Below are positions 57,695 through 61,999 of a stretch of 64,000 nt of DNA, in pieces. A program made the translations under genes and the position numbers. Origin of the DNA: Dehalococcoidia bacterium (lineage in GTDB: Bacteria; Chloroflexota; Dehalococcoidia; Plut-88900); the NCBI GenBank assembly GCA_965207225.1, contig CBDBLV010000003.1, positions 154,546 to 218,545 on the forward strand. The letters run 5' to 3'. The notes below the pieces were generated by a model. The model was not told where the DNA came from and made no database searches. It saw only the letters and a list, made by a program, of their open reading frames with translations. How positions within the stretch are numbered: the first letter of the stretch is position 1; each line of letters begins with the position of its first letter.

Positions 57695-57723
57695 TTGACA
57701 ATAAGCGCGCACAGCTTTAGCAT
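57695..57723 (+). promoter_or_regulatory. near-consensus promoter (TTGACA-17-TAGCAT) of the zinc ABC operon
   Basis: TTGACA at 57695-57700 and TAGCAT at 57718-57723, inside an AT-rich 200-bp intergenic tract. Confidence 0.5.
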
Positions 57724-57773: not shown

Positions 57774-57786
57774 GAGATTTTATCTC
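57774..57786. promoter_or_regulatory. inverted repeat GAGAT-TTT-ATCTC in the znuA leader (candidate metalloregulator operator)
   Basis: Located 18 nt upstream of ATG 57805. A related ATGAGAT-TTTGT-ATCTCAT lies at 61267-61285 and GAATCT-N7-AGATTC at 57615-57633. Confidence 0.35.
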
Positions 57787-57804
57787 AATAGTGGGGTTCA
57801 CACT

Positions 57805-59436
57805 ATGACATTCAACACCTTTAGAGGTCGTTTGCCGATGGCGTTGCTAGCACTCATGCTGGTCGGCCTGCTGGCATTTGCCGGAATAGCGGGATGCTCG
57901 GGTGAAGAAGATGTGGTGGAAGAAGTAGAGCAAACCACCGAAGTAGTTGAGGGTGAAGAAGAGGTGGAACAGGCCACCGAAGCAGCTGAGGGTGAAGAAG
58001 AGGTAGTGGAAGAGGTGGAACAGGCCACCGAAGCAGCTGAGGGTGAAGAAGAGGCAGAGGAGGTGGAGGAGGCGGATAAGATAAAGGTTGTTACTACCAC
58101 CAATTTTGTGGCTGATTGGGTCGAAAACGTGGGCGGCAACCGGGTGGAAGTGTTCAGCCTGGTCCCGACCGGCGCCGACCCCCACGGGTTCCAGCCCGGG
58201 GCGAGAGACGTTGCGAGGGTTGCGGATGCCGACCTGGTATTCAGCGTAGGGCTGGGGCTGGAAGACTCCTGGCTAAATGACCTGCTCCAAAACGCAGCCC
58301 GGGACCCCTCCCGCATTGTAGCGCTGACGGATTCGATAGAGCCGATAGAGTTTGGTGAAACCCACAGGGAAGACGTGGAACTGATCGCGGCCATCGAGGA
58401 AATCGTCCATGAAGTTGAAGAAGGCCATTTAAGCGCTGCTGATGCCATCGAGGAGATAGAGCACCTCCTGGCTGCCAAGGAAGAGGGCCACGACGACCAT
58501 GACCACGACGAGGAAGAGGGCCACGACGACCATGACCACGACGAGGAAGATGACCACGACGACCACGACCACGATGAGGAAGATGACCACGACGACCATG
58601 ACCACGATGAGGAAGATGACCACGACGACCATGACCACGATGAGGAAGATGACCACGACGACCATGACCACGATGAGGAAGATGACCACGACGACCATGA
58701 CCACGATGAGGAAGATGACCACGACGACCATGACCACGATGAGGAAGATGACCACGACGACCATGACCATGGAGGGGAAAGTGTTGCCGCAAAGGTCCAG
58801 GCCATAATCGACCAGGTGGAAAGCGGCGCTATGTCCTTCGGCGAGGCCATTGAGGAGATCGACCACCTGGTGCATGATGAGGAGGATGCCCACGCGGGAC
58901 ACGGGCACGGCGTAGAAGACCCACACTTCTGGTTCGACCCACTACGGGTGAAGCTGGCAGTGGACTACATAGCTGAGCAGTTGTCAGTGCTGGACCCGGC
59001 CGGGGCCAACGGTTACTGGTCCAATGCGACAGCCTACAAGGCTCAACTGGATGAGCTGGACGCATGGACGCAAGAGCAGGTCAGTGCGGTGCCTGAGTCC
59101 AACCGATTCCTATTGACCTCCCACGACAGCCTCGGATACTTCGCCGACAGGTATGGCTTCGAGGTGATTGGAGTCATACTCGGAATCACCACGGAGGTAG
59201 AGCCTTCGGCGGAGCACCTGGTTGAACTCGTGCATACTATCGAGAGATACAATGTGCCGGCGGTGTTCGGCGAGACTACGGTCAGTGAACGGCTGGCCGC
59301 TGCGCTCGCTGGGGAGACGGGCGCCGAGTTGGTTAAGCTGTACTCGGGCTCGCTGGGCGCGGAAGGAAGCGGCGCGGAAACCTACATAGGCATGTTCAGG
59401 GCCAACGTGGAGAGCATAGTCGGCGCACTGAGGTAG
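57805..59436 (+). CDS. znuA: metal (zinc-type) ABC transporter substrate-binding lipoprotein, ZnuA/TroA family, with a hyper-expanded His/Asp/Glu loop
   Basis: Lipobox IAGC-SG. ZnuA core (KVVTTTNFVADWV, DPHGFQP, DPHFWFDP, SHDSLGYFADRYG). The His-rich loop sits at the canonical position just before DPHFWFDP. Confidence 0.85.
   Translation: MTFNTFRGRLPMALLALMLVGLLAFAGIAGCSGEEDVVEEVEQTTEVVEGEEEVEQATEAAEGEEEVVEEVEQATEAAEGEEEAEEVEEADKIKVVTTTNFVADWVENVGGNRVEVFSLVPTGADPHGFQPGARDVARVADADLVFSVGLGLEDSWLNDLLQNAARDPSRIVALTDSIEPIEFGETHREDVELIAAIEEIVHEVEEGHLSAADAIEEIEHLLAAKEEGHDDHDHDEEEGHDDHDHDEEDDHDDHDHDEEDDHDDHDHDEEDDHDDHDHDEEDDHDDHDHDEEDDHDDHDHDEEDDHDDHDHDEEDDHDDHDHGGESVAAKVQAIIDQVESGAMSFGEAIEEIDHLVHDEEDAHAGHGHGVEDPHFWFDPLRVKLAVDYIAEQLSVLDPAGANGYWSNATAYKAQLDELDAWTQEQVSAVPESNRFLLTSHDSLGYFADRYGFEVIGVILGITTEVEPSAEHLVELVHTIERYNVPAVFGETTVSERLAAALAGETGAELVKLYSGSLGAEGSGAETYIGMFRANVESIVGALR
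58486..58770 (+). repeat. in-frame 33-bp tandem repeat, about 8.6 copies, encoding (G/D)HDDHDHDEE(E/D)
   Basis: Units start at 58486, 58519, 58552 and so on. The five units from 58585 to 58749 are identical at the DNA level. Confidence 0.9.
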
Positions 59437-59471: not shown

Positions 59472-60239
59472 ATGATAAAGACAGTTTCCAGTCCCGGTAT
59501 AAGCGTCGATGACATCACCGTAGTTCGCGGCGGTCATACGGCGCTGACGGACGTTACCTTTTCGGTAGGGCCAGCTACTCTCTTGGGAGTGGTAGGCCCT
59601 AACGGAGCAGGTAAGAGCACCTTGCTGGAGGCTATTGTTGGCCTATTGCCCCTGGACAAGGGCTCGGTCCAACTTCATGGCTCTGCCGCCGAAAAGGGAG
59701 GGATAGCCTACGTTCCGCAAAGGGACAGGATAAACTGGGCCTTTCCGGCCACGGTGCACGACGTTGTGATGATGGGGAGGTGCTGCAACCTGGGATGGTT
59801 TCGACAGCCCGGTAGGTATGACCGGGAGTTGGTCTGCGAATGCCTGGAGCGGGTTGACATGTGGGACAGGCGCAGTTCGCCAATCACCGAGTTGTCGGGA
59901 GGGCAGCGCCAGAGGGTATTCATAGGTCGGGCGCTAGCGCAGGAGGCCAGTGTAATCCTGCTGGACGAGGCATTCAGCGGCGTGGATGCCGGGGCCCAGG
60001 AAGACATCATCGAAGTACTTCAGGTTCTCCGGGACGAGGGCCGGGTAGCGGTGGTGGTAACCCACGACCTGACCAACCTTGCCCAGCGCTTCGACGAGAT
60101 ACTCTGCATTAACCATCACCTCTGCGCCAAGGGCCCTCCTGAAGAAGCCTTCACTCCTGAAGTCATGACGGAGCTCTACGGGTCTCACGGCGTTGAGTTC
60201 GCCCCCGATCACTACGAGCCGACCCTCAGCGGACGGTAG
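59472..60239 (+). CDS. znuC: metal ABC transporter ATP-binding protein
   Basis: Walker A GPNGAGKST, signature LSGGQRQRV and Walker B ILLDEAFSGVD. Confidence 0.9.
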   Translation: MIKTVSSPGISVDDITVVRGGHTALTDVTFSVGPATLLGVVGPNGAGKSTLLEAIVGLLPLDKGSVQLHGSAAEKGGIAYVPQRDRINWAFPATVHDVVMMGRCCNLGWFRQPGRYDRELVCECLERVDMWDRRSSPITELSGGQRQRVFIGRALAQEASVILLDEAFSGVDAGAQEDIIEVLQVLRDEGRVAVVVTHDLTNLAQRFDEILCINHHLCAKGPPEEAFTPEVMTELYGSHGVEFAPDHYEPTLSGR

Positions 60240-61057
60240 TGGACTACATATCCGATCCCTTCCAGTACAGCTTCATGGTGCGGGCGCTTATCGTGTCGGT
60301 GCTGGTGGGGGTGATGTGCCCGATACTGGGGGCATACGTGATCACCAGGGGTCGGGCCTTCATGGGCGACGCCCTGGCCCACTCCGTGCTGCCGGCCATG
60401 ATAGCGGCCTTCATGCTGGGTTTCAGCCCCTTCTTCGCCGCGGTGCCGGCAGCAGTCCTGATAGCCATACTAATGGGGAGCATCAGTCGGCGCACGGGCA
60501 TCAGCGAAGACACCTCGATTGGCATCATATTTGCGGGTATGTTCGCTCTCGGGCTGGTGATGCTGTCCACGGCGACAAATATCAACATTGATATAGAGGA
60601 CCTGTTGCTTGGGCAGGTGCTGGGGGTTTCGCAGACTGATGTCTACGTGTCCCTGGGGCTGACGGCTCTGGTGCTGGCGGGACTATATGCCTTCCATCGA
60701 CAGCTGATCTATACGACGTTCGACCTAGTGGGGGCGGCTGTTGTCGGGATCAAGACCAGGATAATTGAATACGTGCTGCTGGCCCTTTTGGGCCTGGTGA
60801 TAGTGATCGGGATCCAGGCGGCGGGTATCGTGCTGGTTATGGCTATGCTCATAACTCCTGCCGCTGCGGCCTACCTGATAGCCAAGAGGTTCGTGGGGGT
60901 GATGGTGTTGGGGGCAGTGATTGGGGCTGCATCGGCAGTCACGGGCCTTTACCTCTCTTACTATGTGGACCTACCCTCGGGGCCGGCGATGGCACTGGTG
61001 GCGACGGGGGTCTTTGCAGTGACGGCTGTGGGGAAGCGGAGATTCGCGACCAGGTAG
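60239..61057 (+). CDS. znuB: metal ABC transporter permease (ABC-3 family)
   Basis: 272 aa, 8-9 TM, FMVRALIVSVLVG..AYVITRGRAFMGDALAH is typical of ZnuB/TroCD permeases. The GTG start overlaps the znuC stop by 1 nt. Confidence 0.85.
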   Translation: MDYISDPFQYSFMVRALIVSVLVGVMCPILGAYVITRGRAFMGDALAHSVLPAMIAAFMLGFSPFFAAVPAAVLIAILMGSISRRTGISEDTSIGIIFAGMFALGLVMLSTATNINIDIEDLLLGQVLGVSQTDVYVSLGLTALVLAGLYAFHRQLIYTTFDLVGAAVVGIKTRIIEYVLLALLGLVIVIGIQAAGIVLVMAMLITPAAAAYLIAKRFVGVMVLGAVIGAASAVTGLYLSYYVDLPSGPAMALVATGVFAVTAVGKRRFATR

Positions 61058-61266: not shown

Positions 61267-61285
61267 ATGAGATTTTGTATCTCAT
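61267..61285. promoter_or_regulatory. perfect inverted repeat ATGAGAT-TTTGT-ATCTCAT upstream of the His/Cys-rich gene
   Basis: It lies just downstream of a possible TTGCAT-18-CATACT promoter (61225-61254). Direct TGAGAC half-sites occur at 61234 and 61257. Confidence 0.4.
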
Positions 61286-61354: not shown

Positions 61355-61576
61355 ATGGCAAACGCCCATGACTCTCATGAGTGCGACGCTCATGAGCACC
61401 ACGGTGACGAGCCCGGGCACATCCACGACGCTCACGAGTGCGACGGGCACGAGCACCACGCCGAGGACCACGGCCACGACTCGCATGAGTGCGACACGCA
61501 CGAGCACCATGGCGACGAAGCCGGGCACGTACATGACCCGCACGAGTGCGACGGACACGAGCACCACGGACACTAG
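61355..61576 (+). CDS. small (73 aa) His/Cys-rich repeat protein, candidate metal-binding protein or metallochaperone
   Basis: AGGAGG lies 8 nt upstream of the ATG. There are four HECDxHEHH motifs separated by His/Asp/Glu linkers, and a strong terminator follows. Confidence 0.65.
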   Translation: MANAHDSHECDAHEHHGDEPGHIHDAHECDGHEHHAEDHGHDSHECDTHEHHGDEAGHVHDPHECDGHEHHGH

Positions 61577-61597: not shown

Positions 61598-61660
61598 GCC
61601 AAGGTCGCTGGACCTTGGCAAGGAAAAGCGCCGACCTCTTTGGGTCGGCGCTTTTGCGTT
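61598..61660. terminator. double hairpin, bidirectional terminator between convergent genes
   Basis: GCCAAGGTC-GCTG-GACCTTGGC (61598-61619), then AAAGCGCCGACC-TCTTTG-GGTCGGCGCTTT (61625-61654) flanked by A-rich and T-rich tracts. Confidence 0.65.
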
Positions 61661-61696: not shown

Positions 61697-61999
61697 TTAG
61701 ATGGGGAACCACTTCCTTCTAACGTTGCCGAAGCGAGACCGGGACACGAGGTGGTCTTCCTTGCATCCCAGTACGGATTCCTCTGCCTGTATCGTAGCGT
61801 GGGTGATACCGAAGTTGTCATGGGCGAGGTCCTTGATGCTCCTCAAGAGCTCATCCCTGTCTCCTGGGTAGTTGGGATTTATGAGCACATGGGCGGTGAA
61901 GGCGACCATTCCGGGGGTGATTGTCCAGACGTGAACGTCGTGGATGAAGGTAACGCATGGGATGTCCTCGGCGTCCCAGGGCTGGGGATGTGACTCCAC
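61697..61999 (-). pseudogene. C-terminal remnant of a cation-diffusion-facilitator (CzcD/ZitB-type) exporter
   Basis: Only the cytoplasmic domain is present (IHDVHVWTITPGMVAFTAHVLI..FGITHATIQAEE). The roughly 200-aa transmembrane domain is missing and its place is taken by REP sequence. Confidence 0.65.

Follow-up and report, generated by a model that had tools for sequence, protein, structure and literature searches.

A recently expanded tandem repeat in the histidine-rich loop of a zinc-type ZnuA-family lipoprotein from a Dehalococcoidia bacterium

The histidine (His)-rich loop of bacterial zinc importers has long been known, and its function is still disputed: it may be an antenna, a dock for a chaperone or a sensor. 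A ZnuA-family substrate-binding protein (SBP) gene of a Dehalococcoidia bacterium (assembly GCA_965207225.1, contig CBDBLV010000003.1) raises the same question for a loop that is lengthened by a 33-bp tandem repeat. We analysed this gene in a stretch of 64,000 nucleotides (positions 154,546 to 218,545 of the contig; the window) and asked what such a loop does, how it arose and how unusual it is. Our best reading, which we consider probably correct, is that slippage has recently expanded a low-affinity, zinc-collecting antenna in the SBP of a zinc ATP-binding cassette (ABC) importer.

With Tandem Repeats Finder (TRF) the 33-bp unit was detected in 8.8 copies at 58478-58769 with 98% matches and a score of 535, making it the top-scoring tandem repeat with a period of at most 60 bp in the 4.03-Mb genome (runner-up 357). 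Read in frame from 58486, the array consists of nine 11-codon units, namely GHDDHDHDEEE, GHDDHDHDEED, six copies of DHDDHDHDEED and a final DHDDHDHGGES, and each unit carries one HDDHDH triad of the HxxHxH type. Units 4-8 (58585-58749) are identical in their DNA, units 1, 2 and 3 differ by 3, 2 and 1 bases, respectively, and the 33-bp periodicity is perfect across 58567-58769. This homogeneous interior, together with divergence that is graded toward the edges, gives the array the look of a young, slippage-driven one, and the DNA-level identity of the units argues for a recent expansion. The array is located directly 5' of the sequence encoding DPHFWFDP, at the position of the His-rich loop in ZnuA. 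When metagenome contigs were scanned for exact matches to the 33-bp unit and to a unique 29-bp flank, no sequence of the same species was recovered, and the exact 543-aa protein was absent from a collection of 15 billion proteins.

A second repeat was detected within the acidic, glutamate (Glu)-rich tether that follows the signal peptide. TRF reported a 51-bp unit in 2.0 copies at 57958-58061 (96% matches) and an older, degenerate copy starts at about 57901, so that approximately three units of the form EEVEQ(A/T)TE(A/V)(A/V)EGEEE lie right behind the lipobox Cys31. In relatives this tether is either a shorter acidic segment or rich in Pro, Ala, Gln and Thr. An earlier note, made from the sequence alone, had described an in-frame 33-bp array at 58486-58770 with five consecutive identical units, its location just before DPHFWFDP, its very recent expansion and the Glu-rich repeat after the lipobox, and our analysis agreed with it on all of these points.

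Based on Pfam, the SBP gene heads a complete three-gene importer of the cluster A-I metal type, consisting of the SBP, an ATPase and a permease. The SBP matched Pfam ZnuA (PF01297) with 202 bits against a cut-off of 29, over residues 95-540 and model positions 1-262 of 263, and sequence matches in the PDB were to MntA, TroA, PsaA, YfeA, AztC and ZnuA. Cys31 of the lipobox was invariant in an alignment of 53 homologues. The AlphaFold2 (AF2) model, built on a 53-sequence alignment, showed a core with a predicted local distance difference test (pLDDT) value above 90 and a long helix at residues 398-427, corresponding to the two-lobe cluster A-I fold. With Foldseek, the core of this model gave target-normalised template modelling (TM) scores of 0.83-0.90 against YfeA, PsaA, TroA, MntC, AztC and ZnuA. 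The SBP remained below the NCBIfam equivalog cut-offs of Deinococcus MntC (244.7 of 400 bits), AztC (NF040870; 221.3 of 350 bits) and ZnuA (NF007091; 42.6 of 268 bits). As every named equivalog cut-off was missed, we assign it to nothing narrower than the Pfam family and its zinc-type subgroup. The label ZnuA, as used in the earlier note, is therefore appropriate for a PF01297, cluster A-I lipoprotein with a three-His, zinc-type site, but not in the sense of the ZnuA equivalog. Three minus-strand open reading frames (ORFs) over the repeat (57798-58850, 58241-58792 and 58429-58926) were rejected as genes, being low-complexity mirror frames without family support.

The metal site was compared residue by residue with the PDB chains 5hx7 and 3mfq. 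His127 (DPHGFQP) and His374 (DPHFWFDP) occupy the first two ligand positions, the third ligand is His440 (TSHDS), where manganese (Mn) proteins carry Glu, and Gly515 (YSGSLG) is found at the position of the aspartate (Asp) of Mn-, TroA- and AztC-type proteins; all four residues were invariant in the 53-homologue alignment. The SBP thus lacks the His-His-Glu-Asp set of the Mn/iron (Fe)-type proteins MntC, PsaA and MntA, with His440 replacing Glu and Gly515 replacing Asp, and it also lacks the Asp fourth ligand of AztC, where the clade has the same invariant glycine. A set of three His, with His at the third position, marks zinc proteins, and a Glu at that position marks Mn/Fe proteins (PMC12183173, PMC9175090). 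Synechocystis ZnuA likewise binds its metal with three His and no protein carboxylate (PMC9175090, PMC8786288), and the presence of a His-rich loop at this position is taken as a hallmark of zinc proteins (PMC9175090, PMC8786288). The SBP has both features of the zinc subgroup, a His as third ligand and a flexible His-rich loop ahead of the second His ligand, and by analogy with these proteins we infer that its site is of the zinc type and that the importer would be specific for zinc.

Judged from the alignment, the conserved His-rich element of the clade is the short segment from H363 to H368 and not the long array: H363, H366, G367, H368 and G369 were invariant in the 53 homologues. Water probably fills the fourth metal position, or else one of the histidines in this invariant HxxHGHG segment, which we regard as the likeliest source of a fourth ligand or as the last hand-over site.

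The enlarged loop is not made of repeats only. The insertion (residues 183-371) carries 37 His, and in the AF2 model it contained four confident helices, with block means of 82-97, that form one hairpin before and one after the array. The array itself (231-324), the N-terminal tether (29-86) and residues 362-371, which include the invariant segment, were disordered. The two hairpins were identical at 16 of 40 positions (40%; BLASTP, E 5e-8), and in hairpin 1 the residues H187, H202, E203, V204, E205 and E217 were invariant or nearly so in the clade. When the hairpin pair of a minimal relative was folded alone, four helices were again obtained, and the four-helix scaffold was common to the whole Dehalococcoidia clade, including members without a His array. 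Approximately 85 of the approximately 180 extra loop residues belong to this conserved, folded scaffold. The earlier note had read the helices framing the array as part of an internal duplication, and had counted more than 150 added residues as acidic or His sequence. The duplication was confirmed by BLASTP, but it is not a by-product of the expansion, since it is clade-wide and also present in array-free members; likewise, long disordered acidic and His stretches are indeed present, but almost half of the extra loop is scaffold.

The hairpins matched no Pfam family. As they read as helix-loop-helix motifs in which loop positions 6 and 12 are Gly and Glu, respectively (HEVEEGHLSAADAIEE), an EF-hand pair was considered. 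It was rejected because Pfam gave no EF-hand even at E<=10, with only unrelated sub-threshold matches, and because Foldseek returned no EF-hand protein with a meaningful probability and no significant PDB neighbour of the isolated four-helix model (best E 1.1). The four-helix scaffold appears to be undescribed, and our literature search, which was not exhaustive, found no publication on such a module. In three homologues, P0121 (613 aa), P0123 (644 aa) and P0124 (542 aa), the loop contains two or three tandem copies of the hairpin, with the motif ..HEVEDGxIsAEEGLEEIEEL.. / ..EDGQIDAxKAIEEIEHI.. and with short His-rich linkers separating the copies. The hairpin thus acts like a modular, amplifiable domain.

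To place the array in its genus, eight species representatives were compared. The orthologous insertion of the congeners has 103-160 residues and 8-14 His, against 200 residues and 37 His in the SBP studied here. Three species had no His array and five had a Glu-rich, His-poor segment, and the minimal same-genus orthologues carry a 103-aa insert with 8 His and no array. On this sequence comparison, the nine-triad array is lineage-specific and an outlier in its genus.

At the level of the family the picture was different. The distance between the first and the second ligand motif was 150-255 residues in the top 120 homologues, 247 here and approximately 72 in classical members; one homologue, P0089 (861 aa), was an outlier with a spacing of 591. 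Tandem arrays of their own, at least as long as the present one, were found in P0029 (DEDEDEDHEGHDH, seven copies, spacing 255), P0081 (spacing 250), P0115 (GDDHGHEDE, nine copies), P0022 and P0033. With TRF, in-frame His/Asp arrays at the loop site were detected in Caldilineaceae (36 bp x 5.7, 94% matches), Nitriliruptoraceae (27 bp x 9.0 and 21 bp x 9.1), Acidimicrobiales (36 bp x 6.4), Hoeflea (42 bp x 5.5) and Pelagibacteraceae, and a congener's paralogue carries an array (27 bp x 15.4, 411 bp) that is longer than the one studied here. His/Asp-rich tandem arrays at this site were found in Chloroflexota, Actinomycetota, Pelagibacteraceae, Hoeflea and Halomonas. The relatives are Dehalococcoidia metagenome-assembled genomes, several of the more distant ones being labelled as sponge-derived.

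The locus set used with TRF had partly been retrieved by His/Asp peptide patterns and is hence biased, for which reason an exhaustive HMMER search was started from a minimal family member that has no array. Of the best 150 cluster representatives, 80 allowed the two ligand motifs to be placed, and their median spacing was 87 residues; in 13 of these 80 (16%) the spacing was at least 245 residues, and 6 had at least 37 His in the interval. The long loops were pure arrays (P0131, P0152), the repeated hairpin module (P0121, P0123, P0124) or other folded domains. A phylum-wide Pfam scan, in which the Chloroflexota members among the best 150 matches typically spanned 260-330 residues, shows the typical span only, because the best-scoring matches are by construction without insertions. 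The earlier note would have given up the singularity of the loop if comparably long ones were commonplace; in the family this is largely the case, and the exceptional length holds only within the genus.

Ten of the repeat-built loops (P0029, P0081, P0115, P0022, L012, L013, L017, L063, P0131 and P0152), all unpublished database sequences, share with the present one the site and the His/Asp/Glu composition, with tandem units of 21-75 bp and an equal or greater loop length. They differ in their unit sequences and hence expanded independently. None of them has 98% unit identity, the best reaching 91-96% at comparable length, and the DNA-level identity of the units here was the highest among the arrays surveyed. 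The array represents the most recent and the strongest expansion within a recurring pattern and not a new kind of thing. In a non-exhaustive literature search we found no publication in which the His-rich loop of zinc SBPs is connected with tandem repeats.

The source genome contains three ZnuA-family genes. One of them, located outside the window at C5:1079474-1081900 (loci L082, L084, L110 and L115), encodes an 808-aa ZnuA-family lipoprotein that retains a site of three His and one Asp. Its loop harbours an AztD-like domain flanked by short (HDD)n runs, which scored 114 bits with the AztD model and so stayed below the cut-off, and the same build was found in relatives such as P0089, L010 and L011. 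AztD is a periplasmic zinc chaperone that delivers zinc to AztC through this loop (PMC7463823, PMC6689063). The operon studied here contains no aztD, and the genome's single AztD-like match lies inside this paralogous SBP on another contig. A congener orthologue of the paralogue (L012) is 90% identical in the C-lobe and 71% identical in the N-terminal alignment (signal peptide to PLEF). The AztD-like domain is missing from it, and a (DDHDDHDDE)x15 array occupies the corresponding place. As read from these orthologous sequences, the chaperone domain and the His/Asp array substitute for each other at one site. This substitution is circumstantial, and it is the best evidence in our data for zinc capture and hand-over rather than pure junk. 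No publication on an AztD domain inside an SBP loop was found in our literature search, which was not exhaustive.

Based on these findings, the array may work as follows. The disordered acidic tether, doubled by the 51-bp repeat, would hold the lipid-anchored SBP off the membrane, and the four-helix scaffold would return both ends of the 94-residue disordered chain to the mouth of the metal site. The segment in between may have been enlarged to nine 11-residue units by replication slippage or by unequal recombination between the 33-bp units. Its HxxHxH triads, flanked by Asp and Glu, would most likely form a chain of low-affinity zinc sites with fast exchange; the Pht zinc proteins of streptococci carry the HxxHxH motif, and AztD has a related one, DHDHDHE, that binds zinc weakly (PMC9175090, PMC7463823). 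The array could then serve as an antenna or local buffer that raises zinc near the high-affinity site and passes it to the invariant HxxHGHG segment and the three-His site. An antenna-type role has been proposed for the far shorter His-rich loops of ZnuA and AztC, and by analogy the array would fit such views (PMC9175090, PMC8786288). The His-rich loop is also reported to hold secondary zinc sites and to mediate transfer from ZinT or AztD (PMC9175090, PMC7463823, PMC6689063). Slippage would shift the copy number by steps of 11 residues with the reading frame kept and only the capacity altered, and because 33-bp steps have this property, the array length is expected to vary between strains. Phase variation through the array was ruled out, as a unit that is a multiple of three gives no on/off switching.

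Among the described systems, ZnuA of Synechocystis sp. PCC 6803 (PDB 1PQ4, 2OV1, 2OV3) shares the cluster A-I fold (Foldseek TM 0.85-0.89), the three-His zinc site without a protein carboxylate and a disordered His/acidic loop just ahead of the second His ligand, which has been proposed to concentrate zinc or to regulate uptake. However, the sequence relation to the SBP is weak (97 bits), the Synechocystis loop is short, non-repetitive and without a helical scaffold, and that protein is periplasmic without a long acidic tether. In Paracoccus denitrificans, AztC and its chaperone AztD (PDB 5W56, 5W57, 5KZJ, 6XPN) offer a second likeness: AztC was the second-best NCBIfam model for the SBP and AztB the best one for the permease, and AztC has a loop at the same site, the D-loop, that is essential for receiving zinc from AztD (PMC7463823). 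AztC differs by its Asp fourth ligand in place of Gly515 and by 3 His in the loop against 37 in the 200-residue insertion; moreover, the SBP stayed below the AztC cut-off of 350 bits and the genome has no free-standing AztD gene. ZnuA of E. coli and Salmonella, which acts with ZinT, is likewise a zinc SBP whose His-rich loop has secondary zinc sites and docks a partner chaperone (PMC9175090), but the match to this equivalog was poor, its Glu59 ligand is absent here and its loop is far shorter than the 200-residue insert. The streptococcal proteins PhtA/B/D/E are lipoproteins of the cell surface that carry five to six zinc-binding HxxHxH motifs and pass zinc on to an SBP (PMC9175090, PMC3842936). 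They show no homology to the present protein (no Pht domain match in Pfam) and carry their triads in folded domains and not in a disordered 11-residue repeat, whereas here nine such motifs are built into the SBP itself.

Several points weigh against the antenna. Both zinc specificity and the antenna role are argued from analogy, all named equivalog cut-offs were missed with an Mn-type MntC model as the top NCBIfam match, and published work is split on the role of the loop between acquisition and sensing (PMC9175090). Because array-free congeners are presumably functional, transport does not require the array, which could be neutral to selection, and since congener segments are Glu-rich and His-poor, there is no consistent selection for His density in the clade. 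The range of the same-genus orthologues, from no array to 160 aa with 14 His, also supports our reading in that it identifies the array as an add-on. If it were a neutral product of slippage, the repeat would be a tolerated, functionless low-complexity expansion in a permissive loop, and it would drift and decay without any effect on transport. This we consider unlikely. It would agree with the orthologues that have no His array or a different, Glu-rich segment, with a site that accepts many types of array unit, extra helical modules, an AztD-like propeller and other domains, and with five identical units, which mark an expansion too young for visible selection. However, the independent arrays of distant phyla consistently combine His with Asp or Glu and are not arbitrary low-complexity sequence, in a congener an array stands in place of a dedicated zinc-chaperone domain, and HxxHxH, the seed motif, is known to bind zinc (PMC9175090).

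A sensor or brake, in which the zinc-loaded loop would cover the site or prevent docking to the permease and so throttle uptake, with a longer array shifting the set-point, seems quite improbable. A regulatory role of the His-rich loop is among the published hypotheses and was proposed for Synechocystis ZnuA (Wei et al. 2007, as cited in PMC9175090 and PMC12183173), and in the predicted model the scaffold brings both array ends back to the mouth of the site; on the other hand, nine weak sites on a 94-residue disordered chain resemble capacity and not a switch, and a nearby cation-diffusion-facilitator (CDF) exporter gene is a mere fragment, which does not suggest a zinc-excess niche. That the importer is for Mn or Fe, with a loop that binds another metal or has a role unrelated to metal, is very improbable. 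The best NCBIfam and PDB matches are of the Mn type (the Deinococcus MntC model with 245 bits, and 5hx7, deposited as MntA, a manganese-binding lipoprotein), but the NCBIfam matches are below cut-off, the Mn-defining Glu and Asp are invariantly replaced by His440 and Gly515, and the His-rich loop is, as noted above, considered a hallmark of zinc proteins (PMC9175090, PMC8786288). We would hardly expect, either, that the copy number, as opposed to the repeat as such, stems from an assembly artefact or from the consensus of a mixed population. Tandem arrays are error-prone in assembly and the genome is of the metagenome type (92% complete, 8% contamination); however, this array is only 285 bp long, in frame and bordered by unique flanks, and the remainder of the gene is collinear with 120 homologues. 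Its units 1-3 and 9 show the graded divergence typical of real arrays, and 5 contigs for 4.03 Mb suggest long reads that span it. A recently expanded zinc antenna is thus the reading that we retain. The coordinates of the features are given in Table 1.

Table 1. Features of the SBP gene, its operon and its upstream region (positions in the window)
Feature	Position	Strand	Basis
Promoter-like site TTGACA-17-TAGCAT upstream of the SBP gene	57695..57723	+	Consensus scan, 10/12 matches; prediction only
Palindrome GAGATTTTATCTC, 31 nt before ATG; candidate Fur-family (Zur-like) operator	57774..57786	+	Pattern scan; regulator identity putative
ZnuA-family substrate-binding lipoprotein gene, 543 aa	57805..59436, stop codon included	+	ORF, Pfam PF01297, PDB matches, AF2 core
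Signal peptide and lipobox (IAG-Cys31)	57805..57897	+	Read from sequence; Cys31 invariance; AF2 helix 9-28
Acidic Glu-rich tether, residues 32-90	57898..58074	+	TRF, unit layout; AF2 pLDDT ~40, disordered
N-terminal lobe including first ligand His127 (58183-58185)	58075..58350	+	PDB chain alignment; H127 invariant; pLDDT >90
Helix hairpin 1, residues 185-231	58357..58497	+	AF2 helices 185-205 and 211-231, pLDDT 88-97; clade conservation
Nine in-frame 33-bp units, (G/D)HDDHDHDEE(E/D); nine HxxHxH triads, 27 His	58486..58770	+	TRF, unit layout; AF2 pLDDT 38-45, disordered
Helix hairpin 2, residues 327-363	58783..58893	+	AF2 helices 327-339 and 345-363, pLDDT 82-97; duplicate of hairpin 1
H-A-G-H-G-H-G segment (His363, His366, His368), directly before second ligand	58891..58911	+	53-homologue alignment; AF2
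C-terminal lobe: His374 (58924-58926), His440 (59122-59124), Gly515 (59347-59349)	58918..59433	+	Alignment to 5hx7 and 3mfq
Operon ABC transporter ATPase	59472..60239	+	Pfam ABC_tran; best NCBIfam matches MntA, AztA and ZnuC types, all below cut-off
Operon ABC-3 family permease	60239..61057	+	Pfam PF00950, 237 bits; NCBIfam AztB 208.7 bits, cut-off 280

Additionally, we searched for regulatory sites. The pattern GAGAT-N3-5-ATCTC occurs 11 times in the genome, of which two sites are in the window, at 57774-57786 and at 61269-61283. The second one, GAGATTTTGTATCTC, precedes a 73-codon His/Cys-rich ORF downstream of the operon, and the other nine are located outside the window in G+C-rich, coding-looking sequence. 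Orthologues carry palindromes of the TGATA-N5-TATCA type at a matching distance from their start codons, which resemble Fur-family 7-1-7 boxes, and two Fur-family genes are present in the genome. Control of the SBP operon by a Zur-like repressor is plausible, with the two palindromes of the window as a candidate common operator. This setting, a palindrome of conserved position ahead of the SBP gene and a related one ahead of the neighbouring His/Cys-rich ORF, also speaks for our reading of the importer.

The 73-codon ORF (61355-61576, plus strand), directly 3' of the importer operon, would encode a microprotein rich in His, Cys, Asp and Glu with four repeats of the HECDxHEHH type; AGGAGG provides it with a good ribosome-binding site, and a hairpin comes after it at approximately 61625-61660. 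Further downstream, a 100-codon ORF on the minus strand (61697-61999) resembles only the C-terminal cytoplasmic domain of a CDF exporter (..HDVHVWTITPG..FGITHATIQAEE..), and no membrane domain was found upstream of it. Two other repeat families were observed in the genome. More than 10 loci, for example C2:14660-16299, C3:40421-41729, C3:101341-106356 and C5:1052420-1053731, contain 327-bp (109-codon) tandem repeats in 2-5 copies with 83-94% identity, which probably encode repeated extracellular domains of large surface proteins. Dispersed repeats with a 60-bp period, approximately 3.6 copies each, 89-91% identity and the common core CGGGGACTCTTCCGCGGCGCAG..GCATCCGC were found at C2:367489-367705, C5:1098951-1099167, C5:1804576-1804793, C5:1273099-1273314 and C4:180570-180906, and look like a repetitive extragenic palindromic (REP)-like intergenic element.

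With regard to the family, a more speculative and rather unlikely extension of our reading is that the scaffold and its variable His/Asp/Glu array form a distinct, modular zinc chaperone that is built into Chloroflexota-type importers and could be exchanged for an AztD propeller at the same site. In-frame changes in copy number would adjust its capacity over short evolutionary times, making the array a contingency locus for capture capacity instead of an on/off switch, and it might possibly be adapted to the zinc regime of marine sponges. The clade itself offers a natural allelic series at one site, comprising no array, a Glu-rich array, the nine-triad His array, extra helical modules and the AztD-like domain. 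As these variants occur in closely related species, they would allow direct tests of how loop length and His density affect the capture and transfer of zinc. This comparative series at the loop site is of more interest than the single gene, which is merely the most recently expanded member of a common pattern.

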